Shown here: positions 1,108 through 23,414 of the stretch, one piece after another
How the letters are laid out: each line of letters starts with the position of its first letter
Numbering within the stretch: position 1 is the stretch's first letter
Origin: an uncultured Planctomycetia bacterium
GTDB taxonomy: Bacteria > Omnitrophota > Gorgyraeia > 2-02-FULL-51-18
Length of the DNA: 64,000 nt
Direction: 5' to 3'
NCBI GenBank assembly: GCA_964402785.1
Contig: CAYODQ010000002.1
Coordinates: 5,763 to 69,762 of the forward strand
The notes under the pieces: model-generated
Told to the model about the DNA's origin: nothing
The model's input: only the letters and a program-made list of their open reading frames with translations
The model's database searches: none
Program-made: the position numbers and the translations under genes

Positions 1108-1135
1108 GTAGGGGCAGCCCGAAGGCTACCCCTAC
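1108..1135. repeat. short GTAGGGG...CCCCTAC palindromic hairpin (short member of the repeat family also seen at 4010 and 20582), between tyrS start and rpsA stop
   Basis: gtaggggcagcc-cgaa-ggctacccctac forms a 12-bp stem with one mismatch and a CGAA tetraloop. It shares GTAGGGGC/CCCCTAC termini with the two longer elements. Confidence 0.5.
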
Positions 1136-2906: not shown

Positions 2907-3601
2907 AAATTTTTTTTAAGCTGCTGGATATCTGTCATAATCTTCTGACTCACGGCCATGTATCCAGCTTCGCCTTCGCCCCATCCGCTCATCTCAGCCG
3001 GTATGAAAGGCTTTCCGTAACAAACTTTTATTTTCTTACACTTAAAACGTTTAGCACCTTTGGGGAAGGCTTCGTAACTGCCATCAATATAAACCGGCAC
3101 CACCCAAGCACCACTTTTCATGGCCAAAAATCCGACGCCGCCTTCTGGGTTTCGAAACTGCCCATCTTCCGAGCGCGTACCCTCAGGAAACACCGTGACA
3201 CAAGCGCCTTGTTTCAAAATACGTATCAAATCACGGATACTTTTAAAATCGGAAGCACTTTCGGACTTGATCGGATAAGCGCCGATCGAACGAAGCACCC
3301 AGCCCACAAAGCCATGCTTGAACAAATAATCTTTGGCCAAATACGTAACGCGCCGTTTGAGAGAAATACCCATCAGAGGCGGGTCGAGATAACTGGCGTG
3401 ATTGGGCGCCAATATCACCCCTCGTCCATCTCCGGGCAATGGCACCTGGCCAGCATCCAAATACGAGAATCTGAATAATACCTTATAGGTGATAAAAAGA
3501 ACAGCTTGGATCACACGGTAGACAAACTCACTGCCGCCGAAGGGGTTTTTGCTTTCTTTAGGCCCCACGAGCCTCTCCAAGAATGGCGAGGATTTTATCA
3601 A
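2864..3601 (-). CDS. plsC: 1-acyl-sn-glycerol-3-phosphate acyltransferase
   Basis: NHASYLDPP (HX4D acyltransferase motif) and FPEGTRS motif. The C-terminal residues ...TRAPGHQKA are encoded by the repeat hairpin. The start overlaps the cmk stop by ~44 nt, so the true start may be an internal alternative codon. Confidence 0.8.
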   Translation of the reverse strand: MIKSSPFLERLVGPKESKNPFGGSEFVYRVIQAVLFITYKVLFRFSYLDAGQVPLPGDGRGVILAPNHASYLDPPLMGISLKRRVTYLAKDYLFKHGFVGWVLRSIGAYPIKSESASDFKSIRDLIRILKQGACVTVFPEGTRSEDGQFRNPEGGVGFLAMKSGAWVVPVYIDGSYEAFPKGAKRFKCKKIKVCYGKPFIPAEMSGWGEGEAGYMAVSQKIMTDIQQLKKNLEHQGTRAPGHQKA

Positions 3602-4283
3602 CCGTCTGGGGTATTGTCAATGGCGTGGTGTCTAGGACAAGCGCTCCTTTGGCCACTTTGAGGGCGCCTGTTTTGCGCTTAGTATCTGTGGCATCACGGG
3701 TTAGGATCTCCCGGTAAACTTGGTTAAAAGTGGCCTTTTTGCCCTCCGCCAAGAGCTCTTTAAGCCTTCTGCGGGCGCGAAGCTTGGGATCGGCATCAAA
3801 ATAGAATTTGTAGTCCGCCTTGGGAAATACCACGCTTCCGATATCCCGGCCTTCCATGACAGCGCCGCTTTTGGCGCCCAGGATACGCTGCTTTCTGACC
3901 ATCTCCACTCTTATCTTGGGTTCGCGGGCTATGTAAAAAACATTTCGTGTTAATTCGGGCGTACGTATTGCCTTTGTTACGTCCTTACCATCCAAAAAAA
4001 CACGTTGCCCTGTAGGGGCAGGGCTTGTCCCTGCCCGCTTTCGGGCACCCACAAGGGGCGCCCCTACAAAACGAATTTTAATTTTTTTGGCGATTTGGAC
4101 TAAGGTTTTAACATCTTCCAGAGATACACCTTTTTGCATGGCCTTAAGCGTGACAGCGCGGTACATAGCACCCGTGTCGATGTACGGAAGTTTGAGCTTA
4201 ACGGCTAATGCTTTGGCGGTGGATGATTTGCCGCTTCCAGCCGGGCCATCGATGGCGATGATGAGTTTTTTCTTAACAGGCAT
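3558..4283 (-). CDS. cmk: cytidylate kinase carrying a ~20-aa in-frame insertion encoded by a palindromic repeat element
   Basis: IAIDGPAGSGKSSTAKALA P-loop matches Cmk. The likely start is M at 4283 (MPVKKKLIIAIDG); the longer ORF begins at 4319. The segment RFVGAPLVGARKRAGTSPAPTGQRVFLDGKDV has ~20 extra residues compared with E. coli Cmk (RFVSTNGNLEVILEGEDVS). Confidence 0.85.
   Translation of the reverse strand: MPVKKKLIIAIDGPAGSGKSSTAKALAVKLKLPYIDTGAMYRAVTLKAMQKGVSLEDVKTLVQIAKKIKIRFVGAPLVGARKRAGTSPAPTGQRVFLDGKDVTKAIRTPELTRNVFYIAREPKIRVEMVRKQRILGAKSGAVMEGRDIGSVVFPKADYKFYFDADPKLRARRRLKELLAEGKKATFNQVYREILTRDATDTKRKTGALKVAKGALVLDTTPLTIPQTVDKILAILGEARGA
4010..4068. repeat. ~59-nt palindromic repeat element (GTAGGGGC...GCCCCTAC family) inserted in frame within cmk
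   Basis: ccctgtaggggcagggcttgtccctgcccgctttcgggcacccacaaggggcgcccctaca contains nested stems GTAGGGGC/GCCCCTAC and GGCAGGG/CCCTGCC. It is clearly homologous to 20582-20644. Confidence 0.55.
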
Positions 4284-5130
4284 GCGGAGCGAGACGAAGT
4301 GAAACGGAATTGGCGGCACTAATGTATTTTTCTAACAAACGACCATTTTTTGAGACAAGCGCTTTTTTGAGAAGACGGATACTGGCCTCGTGCTCGACCA
4401 GTGATCTTAAGATCTCGGTTTTGTTGGACTGTAAAATATCCGCCCACAGCTTGGGGTCAGATTTAGAAAGCCTTGCGAGATCGCGTATGCTCGGATTACA
4501 AGCCTCCATGCCGAGCCGCGTCAAACGCTGAGCGCCGCCCGACTGAAAGAGTGAAAATGCCAGCACATGCGGAAGATGGCTCACGCGCGCCACCCACTCA
4601 TCGTGTTTCTCGGGTGTCAGAATATGTGTGTGAGCGCCGAGTGCGCGCCAAAATTTCTCGACCACAGGCTCATGGCGTGAGATAAAACATCCTGCCTTTT
4701 CAAATAGATCCGCATCCGCGTGCAATATCCCTGACTTTGCGCCGCCCGCCATGGGATGACAGCCAGTGAAATTAACGCCTTTGAGATATTTTTTGGCGGC
4801 TAGCTCGACCAACACTTTGGAGCTGGCGACATCGATGACATGTACGTCGGGCGAAAGATATTTTTTTAAGATCTTGATCTGCTGAATGATGGTCGAAACA
4901 GGAGCGCACAAGATCACAAGATCCGCATCTTTGACCCCTTCAGCCAAATTCATCGTAGCGCCCTGCAAGGCTCGGCGGCGAAATGCTTTGGCCACCGTGC
5001 TGCGCTGCCGCACCACACCCATCACAAGCTTGGCTAACTTTCGTTTGCGGATGGCAAGGCCTATGGATCCGCCGATAAGCCCAACACCCACGATAGCAAC
5101 TTTCTCGAACATCGGTTTATTAGCGGGCAT
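4273..5130 (-). CDS. tyrA: prephenate/arogenate dehydrogenase
   Basis: N-terminal Rossmann motif VAIVGVGLIGGSIGLA. Followed directly by hisC and pheA in an aromatic amino-acid cluster. Confidence 0.8.
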   Translation of the reverse strand: MPANKPMFEKVAIVGVGLIGGSIGLAIRKRKLAKLVMGVVRQRSTVAKAFRRRALQGATMNLAEGVKDADLVILCAPVSTIIQQIKILKKYLSPDVHVIDVASSKVLVELAAKKYLKGVNFTGCHPMAGGAKSGILHADADLFEKAGCFISRHEPVVEKFWRALGAHTHILTPEKHDEWVARVSHLPHVLAFSLFQSGGAQRLTRLGMEACNPSIRDLARLSKSDPKLWADILQSNKTEILRSLVEHEASIRLLKKALVSKNGRLLEKYISAANSVSLRLAPHAC

Positions 5131-9657: not shown

Positions 9658-12000
9658 TTATTCGAGCTTCCTGGCCTTCTTTTGAATTTCGAATACTTCG
9701 ATACGATCCATGGCGATCAGATCGTCAAAATTGGAAACGCCGATACCGCATTCAAACCCCTCAAGTACTTCGCGGGCATCGTCTTTGAAACGCTTCAAAC
9801 TCTCGACCTTGCCTTCATGGATGCGCTGTCCATTGCGGATGACGCGGCATGAAAAATTACGAACGATCTTGCCTTTTTGGACACTGCAGCCCGCGATAGC
9901 GCCTACTTTGGAAACTTTGAACACTTGACGAACCTCGGCCACGCCCACGAACACTTCTTTTTCTTCGGGCATGAGCAAGCCTTCCATGGCCTTCTCGATC
10001 GCGGTCTTCACCTCATAAATGATCTGGTAGAAACGCACATCCACTTCTTCTTTTTCGGAGATCTCGCGCGCACTGCCTGTGATGCCGACATGAAACCCGA
10101 TCACTACAGCATTGGAAGCGGCGGCCAAAAGCACGTCGGACTCTGTGATATCACCGATACCGGTGTGAATGATATTCAAGCGGACATTTTTAGATTTGAT
10201 GGTGCCCAACGTATTTCTGAGTGCTTCCACCGAGCCCTGCACGTCTGATTTTACGATCAACTTCAGCTCTTCAACTTTACCGGCTTTGATATCCTCAAAT
10301 AAATGCTCGAGCGTGATATGTGAAACGCGTGCCATGCGATTTTCACGCAGAGCCACCTGTTTCTCTTCGATGATCTGACGTGCTTCGCGCTCGTCTTTCA
10401 CCACATAAAAACGATCTCCCGCCACAGGAACGGTTTCCAAACCCAAGATCTCAACGGGCATCGACGGCAACGCTTCTTTGATACGAGCGCCACGGTCATT
10501 GATCATGGCGCGCACTTTTCCATACTGAGATCCCACGATCGCAAAGTCTCCAACGCGAAGCGTGCCTTCTTGGACAAGAACCGTCGCCAAAACACCGCTA
10601 CCCTTCGACAGCTCTGCTTCAACGACCACACCGGTGGCCGGAATATTAGGATCCGCTTTTAATTCCAATAGATCAGACTCGAGGATCAAAAGTTCAAGAA
10701 GCTCATCAATGCCCTTGCCGGTTTTGGCTGACACACCCACCATCACGGTTTTGCCGCCCCATTCTTCAGGCATAAGCCCATGTTCCATCAAGCCTTTTTT
10801 GACACGCTCTGGCTGAGCGCCGGGAAGATCCATTTTGTTGATAGCCACGATAATAGGCACATTGGCGGCTTTGGCGTGATCAATAGCTTCTATGGTCTGC
10901 GGCATCACACCGTCATCAGCGGCCACAACCAATACCACCACATCGGTAGCTTGTGCGCCGCGTGCGCGCATTTGTGTAAAAGCTTCATGGCCCGGTGTAT
11001 CTAAAAATGTAACAGCTCCCTTGGGAAGAAAAACTTCATAAGCTCCAATGTGCTGAGTAATACCGCCCGCTTCGGAGGCCGCAACTTTTGTTTTCCGAAT
11101 AGCATCCAAAAGCGAGGTCTTGCCATGATCCACATGTCCCATAAATGTCACCACGGGAGCGCGTGTTACCATTTTGGATGTGTCTTTAAGCTCGGGACGT
11201 GAGGTTGCCTTTTCGGCAGCAACATCGGCAGCCTTTTCTATTTCATAACCGAACTCGATACCCACCTTCTGAGCCACATCAAAATTCACACTTTGATTGA
11301 TAGAAGCAAAGATCCCAAGCTTGATGAGCCTTGCGATCAGATCACTAGGCTTTGCATAAACTTTTTCGGACAATTCTTTAACGGTGATCGGTGTTTGGAT
11401 CTGAAGCTTCTTTGCCTTGGGCGGCTCCGCCGGTTGCACGGGAGCAGCGGCTATCGGAGCATCGCTTCCCATGGGCCTGAAAGGCTTGCGGACTTCTTGC
11501 ACCGGCTTTGCCTTGGGAGGCGGCGGAGGAACCATGGGCTTCCGGATCACGGGAGCGGAGTAACTGGTCGTATTCACAGGCTTCTTTTCAAAAGATGATG
11601 CTTGTTTCGGAGGAGCTGTCATCCGCTTCATAAGAAGCTCGCGCTTCGCACTTTCGATAGATGATAATGCCGAAGAACTCGAATTGGGCGACTTAAATGA
11701 CGTGTCTTGTTTTGCCGCTGGCTTGACTTCTTCTTTCTTCGCAGGCGCTTTCTCCGTTTTATCCGACTTTACGGTCTTCTCAGCCTTATCAGCAGGCTTC
11801 TCAATTTTTTCCGTTTTCTTAGCGGCGGGAGCAGGGGCGCTTTTCCCGGCAAGCGAGGCTTTGAGGCTTTTGACATCTTCGGCCGTCAAAACACTCATAT
11901 GGCTTGAAGCTGTGATCTTGAGCGCTTTTAGTTTGGCAACAACCTCTTTGGAGGTCAGCTTTAATTCTTTGGCGATCTCATGGACTCGAATACTCATCAA
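9658..12000 (-). CDS. infB: translation initiation factor IF-2
   Basis: 780 aa with a Lys/Ala-rich N-terminus. GTPase motifs [12 protein letters not shown] and DTPGHEAF. Conserved infB-nusA-rimP order. Confidence 0.95.
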
Positions 12001-13842: not shown

Positions 13843-15567
13843 TTAGGCTAAATTGTCAATAATCCTGAGTATTTCTGACGGAGCTTTATCCACATCTACC
13901 AACAGCGCTTCGCCTGTTTTTCTGATCTTGATCTCAACCTTACCATTCTTCAGGTTTTTGGGGCCCAGTATCACACGAACCGGCAAACCCAGGAGATCCG
14001 CATCATTGAATTTCACACCGGCAGACTCTGCTCGATCGTCCACCAACATATCCACGCCCGCTTTTTCCAGTGCCGGATCCTGGGCAATATTCTTACAGAT
14101 CTCCAGGCTTTGGGGATCCTTAACATCGATCAATACAACATGTACTTGATAAGGGCTGATATTTTTTGGCCAAACGATACCCTTATCGTCACCATATTGC
14201 TCGATGGCAGCCGCCAATATACGATTGACCCCGATGCCGTAACAACCCATGATCACCGGGTTTTCTTTCCCGGCTGCGTCCAAATAATGCGCTTTCATGG
14301 GTTTTGAATAACGAAGATTGAGCTTAAAAATATGCCCCAGCTCGATCGCCGTTTTAAAATGAAGCGCTTCGCCTTGAGGCGACAGATCACCTTCGGCCAC
14401 TTGTCTGAAATCGCCCACCGTGATCGACTCACCTTTAATGTCACCCAAATTTACGTCGATCATGTGAGTATCATGCTTGTTGGCACCCGTAATAAAATTC
14501 GTCATAGTCAGAACATCTTCGTCGATGTAAATTTTGAGCTTCGCGCCAAATGGGCCGCAAAAACCAAAAGAAAAACCTAATTTTTCGATCGCATCTCGCG
14601 AAGCCATAAAACAACCCGGCTCCGATTTTTTGAGTTTGTATTCGCTCACTTCATGATCTCCGCGAACCAACACCTCAAAAAAAGTACCGTCTGGCCGTTG
14701 ATAGATCATGGTCTTCACCAGATCTTTGGGTTGTTTTTTAAGAAAACGCGCTACGCTCTCAACGCTGCTTTGACCCGGAGTGCTGACCGAAGTTGCTTTG
14801 CCAGATGCGGCGGATGAAGGAAACGTAAGCCCTTTTAATTGACGAGACGCCATCTCAACGCTCATCACCGTATCCGAATCACCGAGCTGAACCATCCTGT
14901 CTTCCCCGGCATCCGAAAATAGCACAAACTCTTGAGAACCCGAGCCGCCCATCGCACCGGGATCCGCCTGCACAATAAAAAACTGAAGCCCGCAACGTGT
15001 AAATATTTGCTTGTACGCTTCTTTCATAGCTTGATAGGTTTCATCCAGGCTTTGATCGGAGGTGTGAAAACTGTAAGCATCTTTCATAATAAATTCGCGG
15101 CTACGGATGACGCCCGATCGAGGACGCATCTCATCGCGGAACTTAGTTTGGATCTGATACCAGGTGGCCGGCAGCTGCTTGTAAGAATGGATCTCTCTTC
15201 TGGCAAGATCCGTGATGATCTCTTCATGTGTGGGACCCAAGACATTTTCTTTGCCGTGGCGGTCTTTGAAATGGATCATGTCTTCACCCATGATGTCAAA
15301 GCGCCCCGTCTCTTTCCAAAGCTCCGCCGGATGAAGTGCCGGCAACAATAACTCCAAAGCACCCGCCTTATCCATTTCATCGCGGACAATGCCCTCGGCT
15401 TTTTTAAGCGCCCTCAAACCCAGAGGTAAATACGAATAGGTTCCGCTTGCCAGCTTACGCGTAAGCCCAGCGCGCAGCATGAGGCGATGACTTTTGATCT
15501 GCGCCTCTTGCGGATTTTCTTTAAGTGTGGGGATCAGCGACTGCGACCAAAAAGCGATACGTTTCAT
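13843..15567 (-). CDS. proS: prolyl-tRNA synthetase
   Basis: 574 aa class II aaRS. N-terminus MKRIAFWSQSLIPTLKENPQEAQIKSHRLMLRAGL is typical of ProRS. Confidence 0.9.
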   Translation of the reverse strand: MKRIAFWSQSLIPTLKENPQEAQIKSHRLMLRAGLTRKLASGTYSYLPLGLRALKKAEGIVRDEMDKAGALELLLPALHPAELWKETGRFDIMGEDMIHFKDRHGKENVLGPTHEEIITDLARREIHSYKQLPATWYQIQTKFRDEMRPRSGVIRSREFIMKDAYSFHTSDQSLDETYQAMKEAYKQIFTRCGLQFFIVQADPGAMGGSGSQEFVLFSDAGEDRMVQLGDSDTVMSVEMASRQLKGLTFPSSAASGKATSVSTPGQSSVESVARFLKKQPKDLVKTMIYQRPDGTFFEVLVRGDHEVSEYKLKKSEPGCFMASRDAIEKLGFSFGFCGPFGAKLKIYIDEDVLTMTNFITGANKHDTHMIDVNLGDIKGESITVGDFRQVAEGDLSPQGEALHFKTAIELGHIFKLNLRYSKPMKAHYLDAAGKENPVIMGCYGIGVNRILAAAIEQYGDDKGIVWPKNISPYQVHVVLIDVKDPQSLEICKNIAQDPALEKAGVDMLVDDRAESAGVKFNDADLLGLPVRVILGPKNLKNGKVEIKIRKTGEALLVDVDKAPSEILRIIDNLA

Positions 15568-16643
15568 TTTTTGAATAATCCTATGATGTTTTCAATGATA
15601 GAGAAGCGTTGAACATCCTGCAGGATCACAAATGCCATCAGCCCCAAAAGTGCGATCATACCACCCTGCGTCATACGCTCTTTGACCGAGTCTTTGAGCG
15701 GAGAGCCTTTTAATTTCTCGATCAAGATAAAAAGCACATGGCCGCCATCCAGAACCGGTATCGGCAGCAAATTGAGCACAAACAAACTCACGCTCAAAGA
15801 ACCCATAAAATACAAAAGATAAGCGATCCCCATTTGAGCCGCTTGCTGCGTCATAAAAAATATGCCGATGGGCCCTGTCATAGAATCTTTGAACGGCATG
15901 GCCCCGGTGATCATGAGCCCAAGCGACATGAACACAAGCGCCGTCATTGACCAGAGCCGATCAAAAGCCAAGATCAACGCCTGTCCAAATGAGCTTTTGA
16001 CAGCGACCATCTCGCTCGAAGGCGCTATGCCCACGAATGATATTTTATGTTTCTTTCCAAAAAAACCGGGCGACTCTTTGATCCTGGGAGCGACGACGAG
16101 AGTTTGCTCGGCGCCAGCGCGATCGATCACAAACTCGATCTTCTCCTCACCTTTATGCACTTGCTTCAGGACATCTTCCCAATAAGTGACCGGCTCATTA
16201 TTTACACGCAGGATCTTATCGCCTTCCACAAAACCAGCTTGAGCGGCGGGCGCATCGGCAAGCACTTTTCCCACTTTGGCTAGAAGCGTCGGCTGGCCTG
16301 TTAAGAAAATAATGAAAAAAAGGACGAATGCCAAAAACGCATTCATGATAGGCCCTGCCATCACAACCGCTAATTTTTGTCCGAGGCTTTTGGATTGAAA
16401 CTCCCAGGACTCACCTTTGGCTTCTTCGGGGCTCTCGCCTGCCATTTTGACAAAACCGCCCAGCGGGAGCAAAGACACACAAAAATCGGTCTCGCCGAAT
16501 TTATGGCCAAATATCTTAGGTCCAAACCCGATCGAAAACTTTTCAACACGAATACCCACCATGCGCGCCACTATAAAATGACCGTATTCGTGCACGATGA
16601 CCAGAACACCCAGCACCAAAATGAACATCAAAGCACTTTGCAT
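15564..16643 (-). CDS. rseP: RIP zinc metalloprotease RseP (site-2 protease)
   Basis: HEYGHFIVAR (HExxH) in the first transmembrane segment, an internal PDZ-like region, and a LDGG motif. Likely start at MQSALMF (16643). Confidence 0.85.
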   Translation of the reverse strand: MQSALMFILVLGVLVIVHEYGHFIVARMVGIRVEKFSIGFGPKIFGHKFGETDFCVSLLPLGGFVKMAGESPEEAKGESWEFQSKSLGQKLAVVMAGPIMNAFLAFVLFFIIFLTGQPTLLAKVGKVLADAPAAQAGFVEGDKILRVNNEPVTYWEDVLKQVHKGEEKIEFVIDRAGAEQTLVVAPRIKESPGFFGKKHKISFVGIAPSSEMVAVKSSFGQALILAFDRLWSMTALVFMSLGLMITGAMPFKDSMTGPIGIFFMTQQAAQMGIAYLLYFMGSLSVSLFVLNLLPIPVLDGGHVLFILIEKLKGSPLKDSVKERMTQGGMIALLGLMAFVILQDVQRFSIIENIIGLFKK

Positions 16644-17788
16644 AGTTTCCTCGTCTCCTCCAACGCCCAAGCGTGCACTTCTTGTATATCCCTAAGATCG
16701 GGGTCGGCGATATGCCGATGATGCGCCATTACATTTTCAATGATTCTTGGGATTTGTACAAATGTAATTTTATCGTCCAAATAGGCCGATACCGCCACCT
16801 CATCTGCTGCCGATAAAACACAAGGCGCGCTGCCGGATTGCCTCGCGGCCTCGTAAGCTAGCCCGAGACAAGGAAATTTGGCCTTGTCCGGCGAGCTAAA
16901 ATGCAGCGAGCCGATCTGCGCCAGATCAAGCTTAAGCTCGGAAGGAACTTCGAGCCGCTTCGGGTATGAAAGCGCATATTGAATGGGCAGCTTCATATCA
17001 GTGACACCTAGCTGGGCAATGGTCGAGCCATCTTTGAACGACACCATTGAATGCACGATCGCTTCCGGATGCACCAAAACTTCGATACGATTGATAGGAA
17101 CATCGAACAACGAAGCTGCTTCGATGATCTCAAGGCCTTTATTCATCATGGTCGCCGAATCCACGGATATCTTCTTGCCCATACGCCAACGAGGATGATT
17201 GATCACGAATTCCTTGGTGAGAGTTTTGAATTGGCTAGCTGCGATATCCTTCAGCGGCCCACCTGAACTTGTAAGGATCAGTTTATCCACCGACGGAAGA
17301 TCTTGCCCTTGCAAACACTGAAAGATCGCCGAATGCTCGCTGTCGACCGGAACCAGGCATGCTTTTTTGTGGCAGCGAAGTGTATTGATCAATAACACCC
17401 CGGCCATGACCAAGATCTCTTTATTCGCCACCGCGATCTTCTTGCCTGCGCGGATGGCAGACAAAACCGCGGGCAAAGACGAAGTCCCTGTGGCGGCAGC
17501 CATAAGAATATCGGCGTCTAAATAACGAACGAATGCTTCCACGCCTTCTTTGTGTGTAAATAGTTTGATATTTTTGGGCAAACGTTTAGCGATCGACGAT
17601 GATGCTTGCGGGTCATCGAGATAAATAGCTTTGGGTTTAAACTCGAGTGCCTGCTGCAATATTTCATCGGCTTTGGATCCAGCTGCCAAGCCCGCGATCT
17701 TAAAAAATTTATCCTGCTGACGCACCACAGCCAGCGTATTACGCCCAACGGAGCCAGTGGATCCTAAAACGGTGACGGTTTGTTTCAC
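16628..17788 (-). CDS. dxr: 1-deoxy-D-xylulose 5-phosphate reductoisomerase
   Basis: TVLGSTGSVGRNTLAVV NADPH-binding N-terminus. 386 aa. Sits in the dxr-cdsA-uppS neighbourhood. Confidence 0.9.
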   Translation of the reverse strand: MKQTVTVLGSTGSVGRNTLAVVRQQDKFFKIAGLAAGSKADEILQQALEFKPKAIYLDDPQASSSIAKRLPKNIKLFTHKEGVEAFVRYLDADILMAAATGTSSLPAVLSAIRAGKKIAVANKEILVMAGVLLINTLRCHKKACLVPVDSEHSAIFQCLQGQDLPSVDKLILTSSGGPLKDIAASQFKTLTKEFVINHPRWRMGKKISVDSATMMNKGLEIIEAASLFDVPINRIEVLVHPEAIVHSMVSFKDGSTIAQLGVTDMKLPIQYALSYPKRLEVPSELKLDLAQIGSLHFSSPDKAKFPCLGLAYEAARQSGSAPCVLSAADEVAVSAYLDDKITFVQIPRIIENVMAHHRHIADPDLRDIQEVHAWALEETRKLCKVL

Positions 17789-18609
17789 GACAAATTCATC
17801 CCCACTAAATGAAAATAAAAAATGGGCACCGTGAACAAAACGCTATCCACCGCATCCAATACGCCACCCATGCCCGGCAGCGACTTACCAGAATCCTTTG
17901 TCTGACAAAAACGCTTCATCAGCGACTCCGACAGATCACCGATCTGGCCTACGATACCGATCAAGACACCCAAGATGATCAAGTGCGGCAAACTCCAGTG
18001 TTTGGGCAAATACGGCTGCATCAAACAAGAAACAACTACGCTTAAAAACAATCCACCAAACAAACCTTCGACCGACTTTTTGGGAGACACATGCGGGATC
18101 AGAGTGTGCTTTCCAAAAAGAGACCCGATGCAATAGGCGCCCACATCCCCCGCTTTCGTCACCGCTAAGATATAAGCAACCCAATAGACGCCCTCGTATA
18201 AAAATCGAAGCTTGATCAAAAAACTCAAGAACCAGCTGACATACAAGATCCCAAATAATGTCAAAGCAATACCCACGAGCGCTTCGGAATTATTCTTGCG
18301 GGTGAATTGTAGAACGAAAAGAAAAAGACACCCAAGGATTAGAAAAAGAACTTCCCCCGAGCGAGTCGATCCTTGCTCTAAATAAACAACAGCCGGTATG
18401 ATGGCTGCCATCGCCACACCAAACAGACGATAACAAGGCACCTTCGCCTCACGCAACAGCGTAAAAAATTCGAACTGCGCCAGTGCCACAAAAATGGCGG
18501 TCAGCACCGCGAACCAAAAATAATTGGACCAAAAAAGCACGAACGCGATCAGCGAGATCAAAAATGTGCTGGTCATCAATCGTTTAGCTAGCGGCATGGA
18601 TATCCCCAA
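17785..18609 (-). CDS. cdsA: phosphatidate cytidylyltransferase
   Basis: Polytopic membrane protein with a C-terminal CTP-transferase signature (SLMKRFCQTKDSGKSLPGMGGVLD). Confidence 0.8.
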   Translation of the reverse strand: MGISMPLAKRLMTSTFLISLIAFVLFWSNYFWFAVLTAIFVALAQFEFFTLLREAKVPCYRLFGVAMAAIIPAVVYLEQGSTRSGEVLFLILGCLFLFVLQFTRKNNSEALVGIALTLFGILYVSWFLSFLIKLRFLYEGVYWVAYILAVTKAGDVGAYCIGSLFGKHTLIPHVSPKKSVEGLFGGLFLSVVVSCLMQPYLPKHWSLPHLIILGVLIGIVGQIGDLSESLMKRFCQTKDSGKSLPGMGGVLDAVDSVLFTVPIFYFHLVGMNLS

Positions 18610-19297
18610 AACGCCTCTCTCGTTTTTGATACTCCCTCAAAGCTTTCAGATAATCATCGCGTGAAAAATCAGGCCAGTATTTTCTGGTGATATAAAACTC
18701 GGCATAAGAAAGCTGCCATAGCAGGAAATTGGACAAACGCATCTCGCCGCTGGTGCGGATCAAAAGATCCGGATCTGGAAGGCCGCGTGTATAAAGGTGG
18801 TCTGAAAAATAGGCTTCATTGAGGAGGCCATCGGCTGGAGCCTCCTCCAAGATCTCTCGAACAGCATCCAATATCTCCGTGCGCGCGCCATAGTTGAGCG
18901 CGATATTAAGGATAAGCGTACGATTTTTCTTGGTCTTCTCGACGGTTTCTTTTAATTTTTTTTGAACAGATGAGGGAAGCATCTCGGTGCGCCCTATCGT
19001 TCGGAATTGAACACCTTGCTTGACGAGATTTTTAAGTTCTTTATCCAAGAAAAAGTCCAGCAGCCTCATGAGCACCGTCACCTCTTCTTGGGGTCGCTTC
19101 CAATTTTCTTGGCTAAAGGCATAAAGAGTGAGCACCGGGATGCCGAAATCAATGGAAGCTTTGACGATCTCCCGAACGCTTTTAACTCCCGCGCGATGAC
19201 CTGCCACACGCGGCAAACCACGCTCTTTGGCCCATCGGCCATTGCCGTCCATGATCACGGCGACATGCTTGGGAAAATTAGCGTACTCTTCGGGCAC
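18584..19297 (-). CDS. uppS: undecaprenyl diphosphate synthase
   Basis: HVAVIMDGNGRWA motif at the N-terminus. Confidence 0.9.
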   Translation of the reverse strand: MPEEYANFPKHVAVIMDGNGRWAKERGLPRVAGHRAGVKSVREIVKASIDFGIPVLTLYAFSQENWKRPQEEVTVLMRLLDFFLDKELKNLVKQGVQFRTIGRTEMLPSSVQKKLKETVEKTKKNRTLILNIALNYGARTEILDAVREILEEAPADGLLNEAYFSDHLYTRGLPDPDLLIRTSGEMRLSNFLLWQLSYAEFYITRKYWPDFSRDDYLKALREYQKRERRFGDIHAAS

Positions 19298-20573
19298 TCT
19301 GGCTGAGCCTCAAGGTCTGCTTTTCGTGAGAACCCACGGACAAAAGAGAAATGGGCACATCGAGCAATTCTGTAAGGCGCTTAAGGTATTTCTTAGCATT
19401 GACGGGAAGCTGCGCGTACTGTTTGACCCCGGACGTATCTTGTCTCCACCCGGCATGTGTTTCATAAACAGGCACGGCCTTTTGCTGCACGGTCAAAGAC
19501 GCAGGAAAATCGCGGTAAAGCTTGCCGCCAAAACGATACCCAACGCAGATCTTGATCTGAGATAGATCATCCAACACATCCAGCTTGGTCACTGCGATCT
19601 CGTTGAGTCCGTTGATCATGCAAGCGTATTTGACCAGCACGGCATCAAACCATCCACAGCGCCGGGGCCGGCCCGTGGTTGCGCCAAATTCTTTTCCTTT
19701 TTTACGGATCTCTTCCATGAGCTTTGTATCAAACTCCGTAGGAAATGGTCCCTCACCCACACGCGTGGTGTATGCTTTCACAACACCCACCACCTTATCG
19801 ATCGCGTTGGGCGGCACACCTGTGCCCACCGAAGCGCCGCCCGCCGTGACATAGCTGGAGGTCACGTACGGATAGGTGCCATGATCCACATCCAAATGTG
19901 TGCCCTGGGCACCTTCGAACATGATCTTCTTCTTGGCTTTGACAGCTTGATTCAAAAGAACGGCTGTGTCTTGCACATACGGCTTCATGAGACGCCCGTA
20001 TTCAAGATACTGATCATAGATTTCTTTGAATGAAAAAGACTTTCGGCCAAATATCTTCTGGAGCACTTCGTTCTTTTCACGCAATGTACGCGTCAACTTC
20101 TCTCGAAAAGCAGGCTCATCGTAAAGATCCGCCACGCGTATCCCGCAGCGCATCACCTTGTCACCATAACTGGGGCCGATCCCGCGCCCGGTCGTACCGA
20201 TCTTGGTAAAACCTTCTTTGTCCTCACGCAGGCGATCATAAGCGCGATGGTACGGGAAAATAAGGTGAGCACGATCACTCACAAATAGCCGGCCCTTCAC
20301 AGAGATCTTTTTAGACTCGAGCTCTTTGATCTCTGAGATCAGGGCTTCGGGATCTACCACGACACCATTGCCGATCACGCATTTAACTTTGGGATGAAAG
20401 ATCCCGGATGGAATAAGGTGCAGGACAAATTCGCCGCATTCTTTGATAACGGTGTGCCCCGCATTGTTGCCGCCTTGGTATCGCACCACCACATCGACAT
20501 CCTTGGAAAGAATATCGATGATCTTTCCTTTGCCTTCATCGCCCCATTGGGCACCCACCACAACAATATTCAT
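19278..20573 (-). CDS. purA: adenylosuccinate synthetase
   Basis: MNIVVVGAQWGDEGKGKIID P-loop at the N-terminus. 431 aa. Confidence 0.95.
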   Translation of the reverse strand: MNIVVVGAQWGDEGKGKIIDILSKDVDVVVRYQGGNNAGHTVIKECGEFVLHLIPSGIFHPKVKCVIGNGVVVDPEALISEIKELESKKISVKGRLFVSDRAHLIFPYHRAYDRLREDKEGFTKIGTTGRGIGPSYGDKVMRCGIRVADLYDEPAFREKLTRTLREKNEVLQKIFGRKSFSFKEIYDQYLEYGRLMKPYVQDTAVLLNQAVKAKKKIMFEGAQGTHLDVDHGTYPYVTSSYVTAGGASVGTGVPPNAIDKVVGVVKAYTTRVGEGPFPTEFDTKLMEEIRKKGKEFGATTGRPRRCGWFDAVLVKYACMINGLNEIAVTKLDVLDDLSQIKICVGYRFGGKLYRDFPASLTVQQKAVPVYETHAGWRQDTSGVKQYAQLPVNAKKYLKRLTELLDVPISLLSVGSHEKQTLRLSQSARRVR

Positions 20574-20581
20574 TTTTATCC

Positions 20582-20644
20582 TTTAAACATAGTAGGGGCG
20601 GGCCTCGTGCCCGCCCACAAAAACGAGGGCACCCGTAAAGGGCG
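20582..20644. repeat. ~60-nt palindromic repeat element (second copy of the GTAGGGGC...GCCCCTAC family), between purA and serA
   Basis: gtaggggcgggcctcgtgcccgcccacaaaaacgagggcacccgtaaagggcgcccctac. Outer 8-9 bp stem and inner perfect stem GGGCGGGC/GCCCGCCC. Aligns along its whole length with 4012-4067. Confidence 0.55.
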
Positions 20645-20661
20645 CCCCTACGATAAACGCA

Positions 20662-22278
20662 TTACAGTTTAATTAACTTCGCATCCAATATATTCTTTGA
20701 CTGCCGGATCTGCTTCATCAGGTCGTCGGATATAGCGCTATCGATCTTGAGAAGAGTCTTAGCATGCCCCCCGGGAAGATCCCTTCCGAGTGTCATGCCG
20801 GCAATGTTCACGTGATTGGAACCCAAAAGTGTACCGATCTGCCCAACAATGCCTGGTACGTCATTGTTCGAGATTAGAAGCAAATACCCCTCCGGAACCG
20901 CTTCGACATTGTAGTTATCGATCGTAACGATACGAATATCTTCTCGGGAGATCACGGAGCCCGCGATACGCGTCTGTTTTTTATCTGTACGAATATCCAC
21001 TTGTAGCAAATTGGCATAATGTGCCGCCGTCGATGATTTGGACTCGGTCACCTTGACGCCTCGTTCTTTTGCCAAAACTGCCGCGTTCACATAATTCACA
21101 TTTTCGGCTAACATCGGCGTCAGCAGACCCTTCAAGAAAGCGACTGTGATCGGAGTTGTTTCACAGTCCGCTGCTTGGCCGGAATAGTGGATATCAGCCT
21201 GAAGAAGCTGCCCATCGATCAGCTGAGCCGCAAAAAGCCCCAGCTTTTCACTGAGAGAAATATAAGGCCTGATCTGATCCAATACCTCTGGATCCACAAA
21301 AGGAATATTGACCGCATTTTTGGAGCCCTTGCCATTCAAATAGTCGATGATGCTCTGCGCCACATCCACGGCCACCGCGATCTGAGCCTCTTCTGTGGAG
21401 GCGCCCTGATGAGGAGTGGCTACGATCTGCGGCAATTTAAAAAGTTCATGATCCTTTGGAGGGGGCTCAGACTCGAACACATCGAGCGCGGCACCCGCCA
21501 CCTGACCCGACCGGATGGCTTCCGCCAAAGCCTTCTCATCAATCAAACCACCACGCGCGCAATTGACGATACGAACGCCTTTTTTCATTTTCTTGAATTG
21601 TGCTTCTCCCAGCATATTTTTATTTTCAGCTGTTAGCGGCAAGTGCAGTGTAATAAAATCAGATTTTTTCAACACTTCTTCGATGGATACGGCTTCAACG
21701 CCCATTTGAAGTGCCTTCTCCGCCCTCAAGAACGGATCATAAGCGATCACGCGCATCCCAAAAGCCTGTGCACGTTTGGCAACCTCTGAGCCGATGCGGC
21801 CCAACCCCAACACACCCAAAGTTTTTTCATAAAGCTCTACACCGGTGAATTTTTTACGCTCCCATTCCCCACGCTTGACGGAATTAGAAGCTTCGGGGAT
21901 ATTGCGCGCCATGGCCATGAGCAAACAAAATGCCAGCTCTGCAGCGGATATGGTGTTGCCGCCAGGAGTATTTACGACAACAATACCCCTTTTGGAAGCC
22001 GCTTCTACATCGACGTTGTCCAATCCGACACCTGCACGACCCACAACCTTGAGCTGCTTGGCAGCAGCGATCACTTCGGCTGTTATTTGAGTGCCAGAGC
22101 GTACGACACAGGCATCGGCATCGGCAATATTCTTCTTGAGCTCATCTAAAGGCTGCTTGAGTTTGATCACAAGCTCTACGTTCTTCTGATCCCGGAATAC
22201 CTTGAGACCCTCTTCCGAGAGATCGTCGCAAACCAAGATCTTAAAAGTAGATTTTTTTGTCGATACCATAGTCGTCAT
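20662..22278 (-). CDS. serA: D-3-phosphoglycerate dehydrogenase with C-terminal ACT domain
   Basis: 2-hydroxyacid dehydrogenase motifs (GVLGLGRIGSEVAKRA). Likely start at MTTMVSTKK (22278), which avoids overlap with the upstream aminotransferase gene; the longer ORF reaches 22398. Confidence 0.9.
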   Translation of the reverse strand: MTTMVSTKKSTFKILVCDDLSEEGLKVFRDQKNVELVIKLKQPLDELKKNIADADACVVRSGTQITAEVIAAAKQLKVVGRAGVGLDNVDVEAASKRGIVVVNTPGGNTISAAELAFCLLMAMARNIPEASNSVKRGEWERKKFTGVELYEKTLGVLGLGRIGSEVAKRAQAFGMRVIAYDPFLRAEKALQMGVEAVSIEEVLKKSDFITLHLPLTAENKNMLGEAQFKKMKKGVRIVNCARGGLIDEKALAEAIRSGQVAGAALDVFESEPPPKDHELFKLPQIVATPHQGASTEEAQIAVAVDVAQSIIDYLNGKGSKNAVNIPFVDPEVLDQIRPYISLSEKLGLFAAQLIDGQLLQADIHYSGQAADCETTPITVAFLKGLLTPMLAENVNYVNAAVLAKERGVKVTESKSSTAAHYANLLQVDIRTDKKQTRIAGSVISREDIRIVTIDNYNVEAVPEGYLLLISNNDVPGIVGQIGTLLGSNHVNIAGMTLGRDLPGGHAKTLLKIDSAISDDLMKQIRQSKNILDAKLIKL

Positions 22279-22298
22279 GTCTTCACCATTCCTGATTT

Positions 22299-23414
22299 TC
22301 AGACGCTGGATGCAGCCAGTGCTTGGATTTTGTAGCCCTTCTTGGTCATAGCGTCTGCAAACGCATTCCACCCACGCTGAGCATCTTGACGTGTGCAAGC
22401 AAAACCCATGTGTGCAAAACGCACCAGCTTGCCCTGCAACTCACCTTGTCCATCCGCCATCACAACATAATGTTCATCGCGCATGATCTTGATCACGTCG
22501 CCCGATGCCACACCCTCCGGCATCACGATCGCAGTGAGGCCGCTGGATGGGGCCTTGGCAAACAGCTTGAGGCCTGAAGCTTCGACCTGTTTGCGAACCC
22601 AAGCCGCCACATCCGCATGACGCTTCCAAACATTTTCCATGCCTTCATCCAGAAGCATTTGCATTGCCACTTCCATGCCTCGGATCAAACTCACGGCTGG
22701 CGTATAAGGCGTATCATTTTTCTTAAGCGTCTTGAGCGCATCGGCAAACGTAAAATAGTACTTGGGTAGATCGGACTTGGAAATAGCTGCCTGTGCACGC
22801 TCGCCTAGAGCAACATACGCCAGACCCGGAGGCAACATCAACCCCTTTTGGCTCCCGCACACGACCACATCCACTCCCCACTCATCCATCCGAAGCGGAT
22901 CACAAGCTAGACCGCTGATGGCATCCACAAACAACATGGTGCCTGATTTACGCGTAAGCTCCGCGATTTGTTGTACGGGATGCATCACAGCCGTGGAGGT
23001 TTCGCACAAAGCGATCAAAACAGCTTTGGCATTGGGGTGCTTCTTTAATGTCTCCTCGACTTTATGAATATCAAACGTCTCGCCATATGGCAGTGAGATC
23101 TCAACCAAATTCATGCCATAAATTTTTGCGATATCACGATAGCGCTCGCCCCATTTACCGGCATTGAGCGAGATCACCGTATCCCCCTTGGAAAGAAGGT
23201 TGGTGATGGTTCCCTCCATCGCTCCCGTACCAGAGGCAGCAAAATAAAGAACAGGGTGCTTTGTCGCAAACACCTTAGGCAACATGCCATTCACCCGCTC
23301 CAAAACAGCCTGAAACTCTTTGGTGCGATGGTGGATGATAGGGATCGCGGTCGCGTCTAAAATCTTCTTGGGCACATTGGTGGGCCCCGGAGTTAATAAC
23401 AAATAATCTTTCAT
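22299..23414 (-). CDS. class V (AGXT/SGAT-type) aminotransferase, probable phosphoserine aminotransferase
   Basis: LLTPGPTNVP N-terminus and SQKGLMLPPGLA PLP-lysine motif. Directly upstream of serA. Confidence 0.7.
   Translation of the reverse strand: MKDYLLLTPGPTNVPKKILDATAIPIIHHRTKEFQAVLERVNGMLPKVFATKHPVLYFAASGTGAMEGTITNLLSKGDTVISLNAGKWGERYRDIAKIYGMNLVEISLPYGETFDIHKVEETLKKHPNAKAVLIALCETSTAVMHPVQQIAELTRKSGTMLFVDAISGLACDPLRMDEWGVDVVVCGSQKGLMLPPGLAYVALGERAQAAISKSDLPKYYFTFADALKTLKKNDTPYTPAVSLIRGMEVAMQMLLDEGMENVWKRHADVAAWVRKQVEASGLKLFAKAPSSGLTAIVMPEGVASGDVIKIMRDEHYVVMADGQGELQGKLVRFAHMGFACTRQDAQRGWNAFADAMTKKGYKIQALAASSV

Follow-up and report, generated by a model that had tools for sequence, protein, structure and literature searches.

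A probable GTAG REP doublet translated within a loop of cytidylate kinase in an Omnitrophota genome

Repetitive extragenic palindromes (REPs) and the inverted dimers built from them, the REPINs (REP doublets forming hairpins), are non-autonomous and presumably move with the help of an enzyme supplied in trans, the REP-associated tyrosine transposase (RAYT) of the Y1/HUH type, which would work via single-stranded hairpin DNA and leave no target-site duplication. A probable member of this class is described here from a 64,000-nt window (contig CAYODQ010000002.1 of assembly GCA_964402785.1, positions 5,763 to 69,762 of the forward strand) of an uncultured bacterium assigned to the Omnitrophota, where a 56-nt palindromic doublet lies in frame within cmk, the gene encoding cytidylate kinase (Cmk). 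The GTAG and CGTC superfamilies of REPs, together with the REPtrons, were defined by Di Nocera, De Gregorio and Rocco in 2013 (PMC3733652), and the available part of that paper also catalogues intragenic REPs, more than half of which are dimers or groups encoding 20-30 amino acids, with Opitutus terrae the richest genome and a GTAG-11 dimer of Geobacter uraniireducens encoding the peptide VGAGCPRPGRGDRAP. Translated intragenic GTAG REP dimers have been known since that publication and the cmk case adds an example. Neither cmk nor the Omnitrophota occur in the intragenic lists of that part of the paper, and a literature search returned no report of such repeats in Omnitrophota, with the string GTAGGGGC retrieving unrelated primers only.

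The segment within cmk is very probably a GTAG REP dimer (REPIN) of the type mobilised by RAYTs that is translated within a permissive loop of the enzyme. The cmk open reading frame (ORF) spans 3558..4319 on the minus strand with a likely ATG start at 4283, giving a gene (3558..4283) of 241 amino acids plus stop that matches Pfam PF02224 and has a product identical to database protein P0001. The doublet, located by exact match at 4012..4067, has its GTAG tags outermost and ends in GTAGGGG…CCCCTAC. It consists of unit 1 (GTAGGGGCGCCCCTTGTGGGTGCCC; 4043..4067, minus strand), with a GTAG tag, an 8-bp stem including one G-T pair and the loop CTTGT, a 6-nt spacer (4037..4042; GAAAGC on the coding strand), and unit 2 (GTAGGGGCAGGGCTTGTCCCTGCCC; 4012..4036, plus strand), with a perfect 8-bp stem. 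The coding-strand sequence of the element is GTA GGG GCG CCC CTT GTG GGT GCC CGA AAG and then CGG GCA GGG ACA AGC CCT GCC CCT AC, which is translated as Cmk V73 to T91, VGAPLVGARKRAGTSPAPT; unit 1 supplies VGAPLVGA and unit 2, read on the cmk strand, supplies (R)AGTSPAPT. The initial annotation, made from the sequence alone, had attributed extra residues of Cmk to a GC-rich palindromic element, and the 56-mer quoted there matches 4012..4067 exactly, although the peptide given for it was off by one residue.

Two further copies, both intergenic and each 3' of a gene, bring the count in the window to three and bear out the proposal of a palindromic family with an in-frame member in cmk and paralogs elsewhere. 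The first is a 60-nt doublet at 20592..20651 (units at 20592..20616 on the plus strand and 20627..20651 on the minus strand, with a 10-nt spacer), located between the stop of serA (ORF 20662..22398), upstream, and the start of purA (ORF 19278..20573), downstream; both genes are on the minus strand and their identities are backed by Pfam. This full-length copy between purA and serA had been noted in the initial annotation, but 8 nt away, at 20584-20643. The second is a single 28-nt hairpin, GTAGGGG..CCCCTAC, 8 nt 3' of the rpsA stop at 1108..1135, precisely where it had been placed. All four 25-nt units in the window (two per long element, inverted) follow the scheme GTAG-GGGC-N4-N5-N4-GCCC, a four-base tag and then a GC-rich stem of 8 bp closed by a loop of 5 nt, the short hairpin likewise begins with GTAG, and the 7-nt ends of the long elements (GTAGGGG/CCCCTAC) are able to pair with each other. 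Stems vary among the copies yet stay complementary (AGGG/CCCT, GGGC/GCCC, GCCC/GGGT). Patterns bracketed in the manner of GTAGGGG…CCCCTAC had no match in 100 dinucleotide-preserving shuffles of the window and GTAGGGGC occurs five times where 0.77 are expected, which excludes chance. A search of the whole window against Rfam 15 at the gathering threshold matched no family. The gene downstream of the short hairpin, tyrS, is named from synteny with a related locus (L248), in which the place of the GTAG hairpin in the rpsA-tyrS spacer (4360-4470) is taken by an unrelated palindrome of ~85 nt (GGGGCCGGTGGCCGG…CCGGCTGCCGGCCCC); this spacer is filled by differing hairpin elements in related lineages.

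Membership of the window element in the GTAG REP/REPIN-RAYT family (Nunvar 2010; Bertels & Rainey 2011, PMC3116915; Di Nocera et al. 2013, PMC3733652) is well supported. The shared features comprise units in which a GTAG tag, unpaired, stands 5' of a GC-rich stem of 8 bp with a short loop; inverted dimers with GTAG outermost (the HH dimers of Di Nocera et al.) and a short spacer; compensatory stem changes, G-T pairs and intergenic copies 3' of co-directional genes; a RAYT gene flanked by matching units (a REPtron, here in other genomes); and occasional dimers translated within genes into ~20 amino acids. The G. uraniireducens GTAG-11 peptide is almost that of the loop in Cmk ortholog P0013, VGARLPRPGRGNPAPT. 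Compared with published GTAG REPs, the differences lie in the host phylum, the target gene and the repeated hits on one loop among orthologs, in a doublet that in this RAYT clade usually sits inside the transposase ORF, and in a 25-nt unit that hardly varies among many phyla, in contrast to the lineage-specific pairs of classical REPIN-RAYT systems.

Other short palindromic systems are less close. The palindromic elements of Rickettsia (RPEs; Ogata et al. 2000), to which an analogous family had been suggested, likewise occur in frame in functional proteins, add a surface peptide while the fold is kept, and are inherited vertically and then decay; RPE-1 is longer (~100-150 nt), RPEs are confined to Rickettsia and, to our knowledge, have no dedicated transposase. 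The tag is GTAG here and CGTC in RPE-4 and RPE-6, and no sequence relationship was seen, nor would one be expected. Since RPE-4 and RPE-6 are classed as CGTC-tagged REPs in the available text of PMC3733652, the likeness is an analogy of outcome and not membership: the in-frame insertion is alike, while the element belongs to no new family but to the GTAG REP dimers of the RAYT superfamily. REPs and BIMEs (bacterial interspersed mosaic elements) of Escherichia coli, with their transposase TnpA-REP (RayT/YafM), share the NF047646 transposase family, the GTAG tag and the logic of a hairpin substrate, but are strictly extragenic and have bulged stems, longer loops and unrelated sequences. Miniature inverted-repeat transposable elements (MITEs; Correia/NEMIS, Nezha, RUP, ERIC) are also short, non-autonomous and bounded by terminal inverted repeats, and some are in frame within genes, but they are insertion sequence derivatives of 70-300 nt with target-site duplications and DDE transposases, in contrast to the Y1/HUH partner here. 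The cmk element has a 7-nt terminal inverted repeat (GTAGGGG/CCCCTAC), but no target-site duplication is visible in the flanks of either the cmk copy (TTGCCCT|…|AAAACGA) or the 20592 copy (AAACATA|…|GATAAAC).

The unit subtype common to both window doublets, GTAGGGGCGCCC-N5-GGGTGCCC, was scanned for in one genome per species and recovered from at least 120 loci, with metagenome-assembled genomes (MAGs) of more than a dozen phyla among the matches listed. These include Acidobacteriota, Chloroflexota, Desulfobacterota, Bacteroidota, several classes of Pseudomonadota, Planctomycetota, Nitrospirota, Gemmatimonadota, Latescibacterota, Poribacteria, Peregrinibacteria, Myxococcota, Bdellovibrionota and Omnitrophota, and the occurrence of near-identical units across such a range may be a new observation. 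In 326 units gathered from other loci, complementarity extends to all four variable stem pairs in 86% of the viral-contig set and 94% of the genome set, values that drop to 30% and 60%, respectively, after partner shuffling; pairs of several types are present, CTTGT is the preferred loop, and the base preceding GTAG (position -1) is C or T in ~74%. More than 120 IMG/VR contigs classed as viral (L008-L127) carry GTAGGGGC…GCCCCTAC doublets, some of them (such as L033 and L067) with 3-4 copies in ~10 kb. Regular tandem REP arrays that include flanking sequence (L135 1862-2276, period 195 nt; L183 6376-6690, paired units, period 232 nt; L128 3700-5400) resemble the grouped REP clusters of the literature.

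A candidate transposase partner accompanies the same unit in other genomes. In L128, a locus of Ca. Poriferihabitaceae (Gammaproteobacteria), six REP copies cluster around a 169-aa ORF that matches NCBIfam NF047646 (REP-associated tyrosine transposase equivalog; 81.9 bits, cutoff 80) as well as Pfam Y1_Tnp (PF01797), and the doublets on both sides of this RAYT hold a unit identical at 25 of 25 positions to cmk unit 1. The exact 25-mer, GTAGGGGCGCCCCTTGTGGGTGCCC, is found at window positions 4043-4067, twice in L128 (3708-3732 and 4072-4096) and at 2041-2065 of L229, from another Omnitrophota MAG. Homologs of the L128 RAYT are encoded in nine of the 120 listed loci, which had been fetched by the REP pattern alone, and eight of the nine have REP units inside or adjoining the ORF. 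A protein search with the RAYT returned 379 homologs, three of them named Candidatus Omnitrophota/Omnitrophica, and in three Omnitrophota MAGs (loci L249-L252) a REP unit precedes the RAYT homolog, a doublet lies inside it and more units follow. The unit inside these genes, which is also present beside them, matches window unit 1 at 23 of 25 positions, and Omnitrophota and gammaproteobacterial MAGs share the 25-nt unit even though their RAYTs are only ~45% identical.

In this RAYT clade the loop directly after the HUH motif usually carries an in-frame REP or REP doublet, as in an Omnitrophota example (…MPNHLHGVIVI-VGAPLVGAQ…GATTRVAPT-LGDIIGAFK…). The arrangement was seen in DNA at nine loci from several phyla. 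In-frame REPs of this kind lie at L249 10265-10344, L252 10310-10395, L160 5181-5344, L201 2633-2709, L237 3946-4009, L227 4009-4033 and L196 3428-3545. A strict REP peptide pattern occurs at the post-HUH loop in 22 of 113 homologs and only once elsewhere in the protein; a loose pattern, which takes in decayed copies, is present in 68 of 103 RAYTs, about two thirds, but was set aside as too permissive in favour of the strict one. The REPtron section of Di Nocera et al. (PMC3733652), within the text available, describes only 5' or 3' overlaps and no REP inside a RAYT, and a term search of the accessible text of Bertels et al. 2017 likewise returned nothing on REPs inside RAYTs; in-frame doublets inside most RAYT genes of a clade may be a new observation. 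Directly upstream of the RAYT in L249 (~9870-9960), seven tandem copies of ATCGGGCAACCAC, half of a REP stem, lead into a complete REP unit. Partial copies of the RAYT middle segment (…PNHLHG… with internal REP units) lie downstream of the gene at L249 10800-10920 and L252 10700-10760, which suggests local duplication or recombination at REPs. Further from the RAYT of L252, ~3.3 kb downstream, what looks like a diversity-generating retroelement cassette (13965-20621) combines a bAvd-like gene with genes for an RVT_1 reverse transcriptase and a Big_1 protein of 2,434 aa.

Cmk of the window retains every residue invariant in 28 aligned orthologs (alignment A1) and matches Cmk sequences in the PDB with E values down to 1e-40 and a gap at the point of the insert. 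In a set of 120 Omnitrophota-type orthologs, with the loop measured between the conserved …IRF and Q(R/K)V…, the loop between F72 and Q93 in the window Cmk comprises 20 amino acids, compared to 2-7 in 111 of the 120 (and 8 in two orthologs), in keeping with the ~20 extra residues first noticed. An AlphaFold model (mean predicted local distance difference test score, pLDDT, 87.4; predicted TM score 0.80) places residues 74-93 in coil between strands 70-73 and 94-97, with a mean pLDDT of 68 and 52 for the two ten-residue blocks of the insert and ~90 for most other blocks. Taken with the gap in the PDB alignments, the predicted coil between two strands indicates that the insert lengthens the tip of a beta-hairpin. 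In this model the REP-encoded loop is probably solvent-exposed and disordered, and the enzyme with its insert presumably remains active.

The closest orthologs lack the segment. P0002, with 80% identity to the window Cmk, has the loop GPIRGLK and no element in its DNA, and P0003, at 76% identity, has no element in its DNA either; the three proteins cluster together in 39 of 40 bootstraps. The 13-aa loop of P0003 (…KKTSVAT) was considered as a decayed remnant of the window element and rejected, there being no REP trace in the DNA. Among metagenome contigs, 32 cmk loci were returned and the element is absent from all 29 full-length ones that were checked. Orthologs that share the segment without nucleotide likeness to the intergenic copies, a case raised at the outset as telling against a mobile family, were not seen. 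An old native loop of Cmk, with the repeat likeness coincidental or the repeats themselves derived from cmk, would fit the long loops that several orthologs have at the same place. These orthologs are, however, scattered among short-loop proteins in the tree, REP units beside RAYT genes and in unrelated genomes match the unit exactly, and the pattern found no match in 100 shuffles; this explanation is effectively refuted. A repeat-induced chimera in the assembly is equally improbable: the sequence comes from a MAG, in which repeats can lead to wrongly joined contigs, but the 56-nt element is shorter than a read and in frame with colinear cmk flanks, an ENA contig (L001; 2,546 nt) encodes the identical Cmk protein with the identical element, and six other assemblies carry analogous insertions in the same loop.

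Apart from the unrelated loop of P0003, eight Cmk orthologs, including that of the window, have loops of 13-20 amino acids, and DNA or peptide evidence links seven of the eight to elements of this kind. The DNA was examined for five of the other seven (P0004, P0013, P0017, P0019 and P0075). P0004 carries a 53-nt doublet at a codon position identical to that of the window (TTT|GTAGGGG…CGTAC|C GGG CAG), with stems that differ from those of the window and still pair. In P0013 and P0017 a 47-nt doublet lies two codons further on, and P0019 holds a decayed form of the same insertion that has lost the left arm and retains CCCCGCCCCTAC, while P0075 has a single perfect 28-nt hairpin with the architecture of the window hairpin at 1108. 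All of the Cmk-loop elements with DNA are read in the frame GTA-GGG-GC…C-CCT-AC, where the neighbouring frame would open with a TAG stop. For P0008, the element is proposed from the peptide, VKPPLAGARARRAGTSPAPA, which closely resembles that of the window. In P0037 the loop at this position is 16 residues long, QTAYRTASRGERDAVR; it lacks the usual VGA…APT signature and could be an element in another frame or an unrelated insertion. In a tree built with the loop masked, long-loop Cmks are scattered among short-loop orthologs (no clade of fewer than 32 members unites the window Cmk with P0004, and P0008 is on the other side of the root). This indicates that elements were gained independently at least five times, namely in the window Cmk, in P0004, in P0008, in the P0013 group and in P0075. 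Such a recurrent hotspot in Cmk may be a new observation. The loop is likely the sole place in this small essential enzyme that tolerates 10-20 extra flexible residues, and a target preference may contribute, with a pyrimidine preceding GTAG at every Cmk and RAYT insertion.

Under the reading of the segment as a translated REPIN, one copy would have inserted into the stretch of cmk that encodes a beta-hairpin tip within the NMP-binding portion of the enzyme, and we infer that it was moved there by a RAYT. It would have survived since the frame GTA-GGG-GC…C-CCT-AC has no stop codon, the net length change would keep the reading frame, and the Gly/Ala/Pro/Arg-rich peptide would merely extend an exposed, probably disordered loop, with insertions elsewhere in the small essential cmk purged by selection; the insertion would then be neutral, and the remaining two window copies would be ordinary intergenic REPs 3' of genes. 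Several observations weigh against this account. No HUH…Y…NP transposase motif was found in the six frames of the 64-kb window, which leaves it without a RAYT, and the three copies seen in 64 kb do not in themselves establish a high copy number for the source organism. The RAYT homologs of Omnitrophota score 64-68 bits to NF047646, their best hit, below the cutoff of 80, partly as a result of the internal REP splitting the match (two of the three proteins). No empty-site allele close enough to delimit the insertion was found in metagenome contigs, where the best relative is 64% identical. The 56 nt are not a multiple of three, and the event may therefore have added or removed bases or exchanged the old loop for the element. 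More generally, complete RAYT-driven transposition of a REP has never been reconstituted, even for E. coli, according to the available part of PMC8266576. Lastly, both hairpins are intact and P0004 has a hairpin-forming doublet at the same codon position, so that selection on structure, not neutrality, could be at work.

Some of these points also fit an arrival without a transposase, by gene conversion, template switching between hairpins or recombination with another REP, in which the link to a RAYT would be historical. The window lacks a RAYT, the length of the element is not frame-neutral and the old loop was apparently replaced and not just interrupted; a possible ancestral F-V-G-Q (TTT GTA GGG CAA) would share GTAGGG with the element and offer microhomology; and the window and P0004 hold different doublets at one site. 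Such an origin is nonetheless distinctly unlikely, given that one loop has been entered at three positions by three architectures (a 56/53-nt doublet, a 47-nt doublet and a 28-nt hairpin), and that the pyrimidine at -1 in every Cmk and RAYT insertion, in line with the family-wide preference for C or T (~74%), suits a site-selective enzyme better than random copying.

The predicted folding of the copies bears on whether the insert has acquired a role of its own. The cmk doublet folds into two hairpins, with -35.7 kcal/mol on the mRNA-sense strand (z = -4.4) and -31.5 kcal/mol on the opposite strand; the corresponding values are -37.4 and -34.0 kcal/mol for the 20592 copy and -29.9 (minus strand) and -22.0 kcal/mol (plus strand) for the hairpin at 1108, and z-scores of the window hairpins range from -4.3 to -6.8. 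For all three copies the more stable fold is that of the minus strand, on which the neighbouring genes have their sense sequence, as the one imperfect position of the stem forms G-U on this strand and A-C on the other. GC skew is negative on the plus strand in every 4-kb block of window positions 1-64000, and the G-rich minus strand is probably the leading strand throughout. On the minus strand of the 20592 doublet (20623-20648), the spacer continues after the first hairpin with CGTTTTTGTG, a terminator-like arrangement between serA and purA. A terminator scan called no T-run terminator at the 1108 hairpin, and the cmk copy, inside an ORF and with the spacer GAAAGC and no T-run, does not have the form of an intrinsic terminator. 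With only the 20592 copy combining a terminator-like hairpin and TTTTT in the spacer, no more than one of the three may also act as a terminator.

It is unlikely, though less so than an arrival without a transposase, that the REP-derived insert is now kept for a hairpin or peptide function, a view that extends the account of a translated REPIN and does not exclude it. Candidate roles would be ribosome pausing or transcript protection in the tyrA-cmk-plsC-rpsA run, DNA structure, or a useful surface loop of Cmk. Both stems and the terminal pairing are intact, in each of the three window copies the mRNA-sense strand gives the better fold (G-U vs A-C), the P0004 doublet at the identical codon position has different stems that still pair, the 20592 copy has its terminator-like hairpin and T-run on the sense strand, and Di Nocera et al. 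(PMC3733652), in the text available, argue that G-T pairs imply a function at the RNA level. Conversely, most Cmk orthologs, the closest included, lack the element, and the insertion of P0013, P0017 and P0019 is decaying in P0019 as neutral sequence would. The sense strand is also the G-rich and probably leading one, and the strand bias, seen in three copies, may reflect the mechanism of insertion.

Beyond cmk and the RAYT genes, translated elements were found in further genes of the fetched loci, where in-frame cases were kept only if homology was present on both sides of, or across, the element. These comprise an HsdM methyltransferase (N6_Mtase match at residues 147-492, element at 428-452), NuoL and an AcrB-like transporter. 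Candidates in L247, L246, L200, L155, L153 and L206 were discarded as spurious ORFs of GC-rich MAGs or as elements upstream of the true start. It is possible, and put forward tentatively, that these elements form a distinct, cross-phylum REP-RAYT lineage whose doublet normally resides in frame in the post-HUH loop of the RAYT, whose unit is near-identical throughout, and which is intrinsically translatable and recurrently coding; as part of the same tentative proposal, translatability would follow from two of the three frames being open at each end on both strands, yielding Gly/Ala/Pro/Arg peptides. If true, such elements would turn into coding sequence time and again at the same permissive sites, among them the Cmk beta-hairpin (at least five gains) and the RAYT loop, and the lineage would regularly supply uncultured bacteria with loop extensions of their proteins, beyond an occasional accident.

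As a translated REP dimer and not a lineage-specific functional motif, the 19-residue segment of Cmk should be masked in alignments and phylogenies. The locus extends the known GTAG REP/RAYT system, intragenic copies included, to the Omnitrophota, a largely uncultured phylum. The REPs inside RAYT genes and the near-identical units across phyla bear on how REPs and transposases stay matched and on whether the spread of such systems is strictly vertical. Having acquired elements in one loop on five or more occasions, Cmk, a small essential enzyme, offers a natural experiment on insertion-tolerant sites and on the target preference of RAYT elements.

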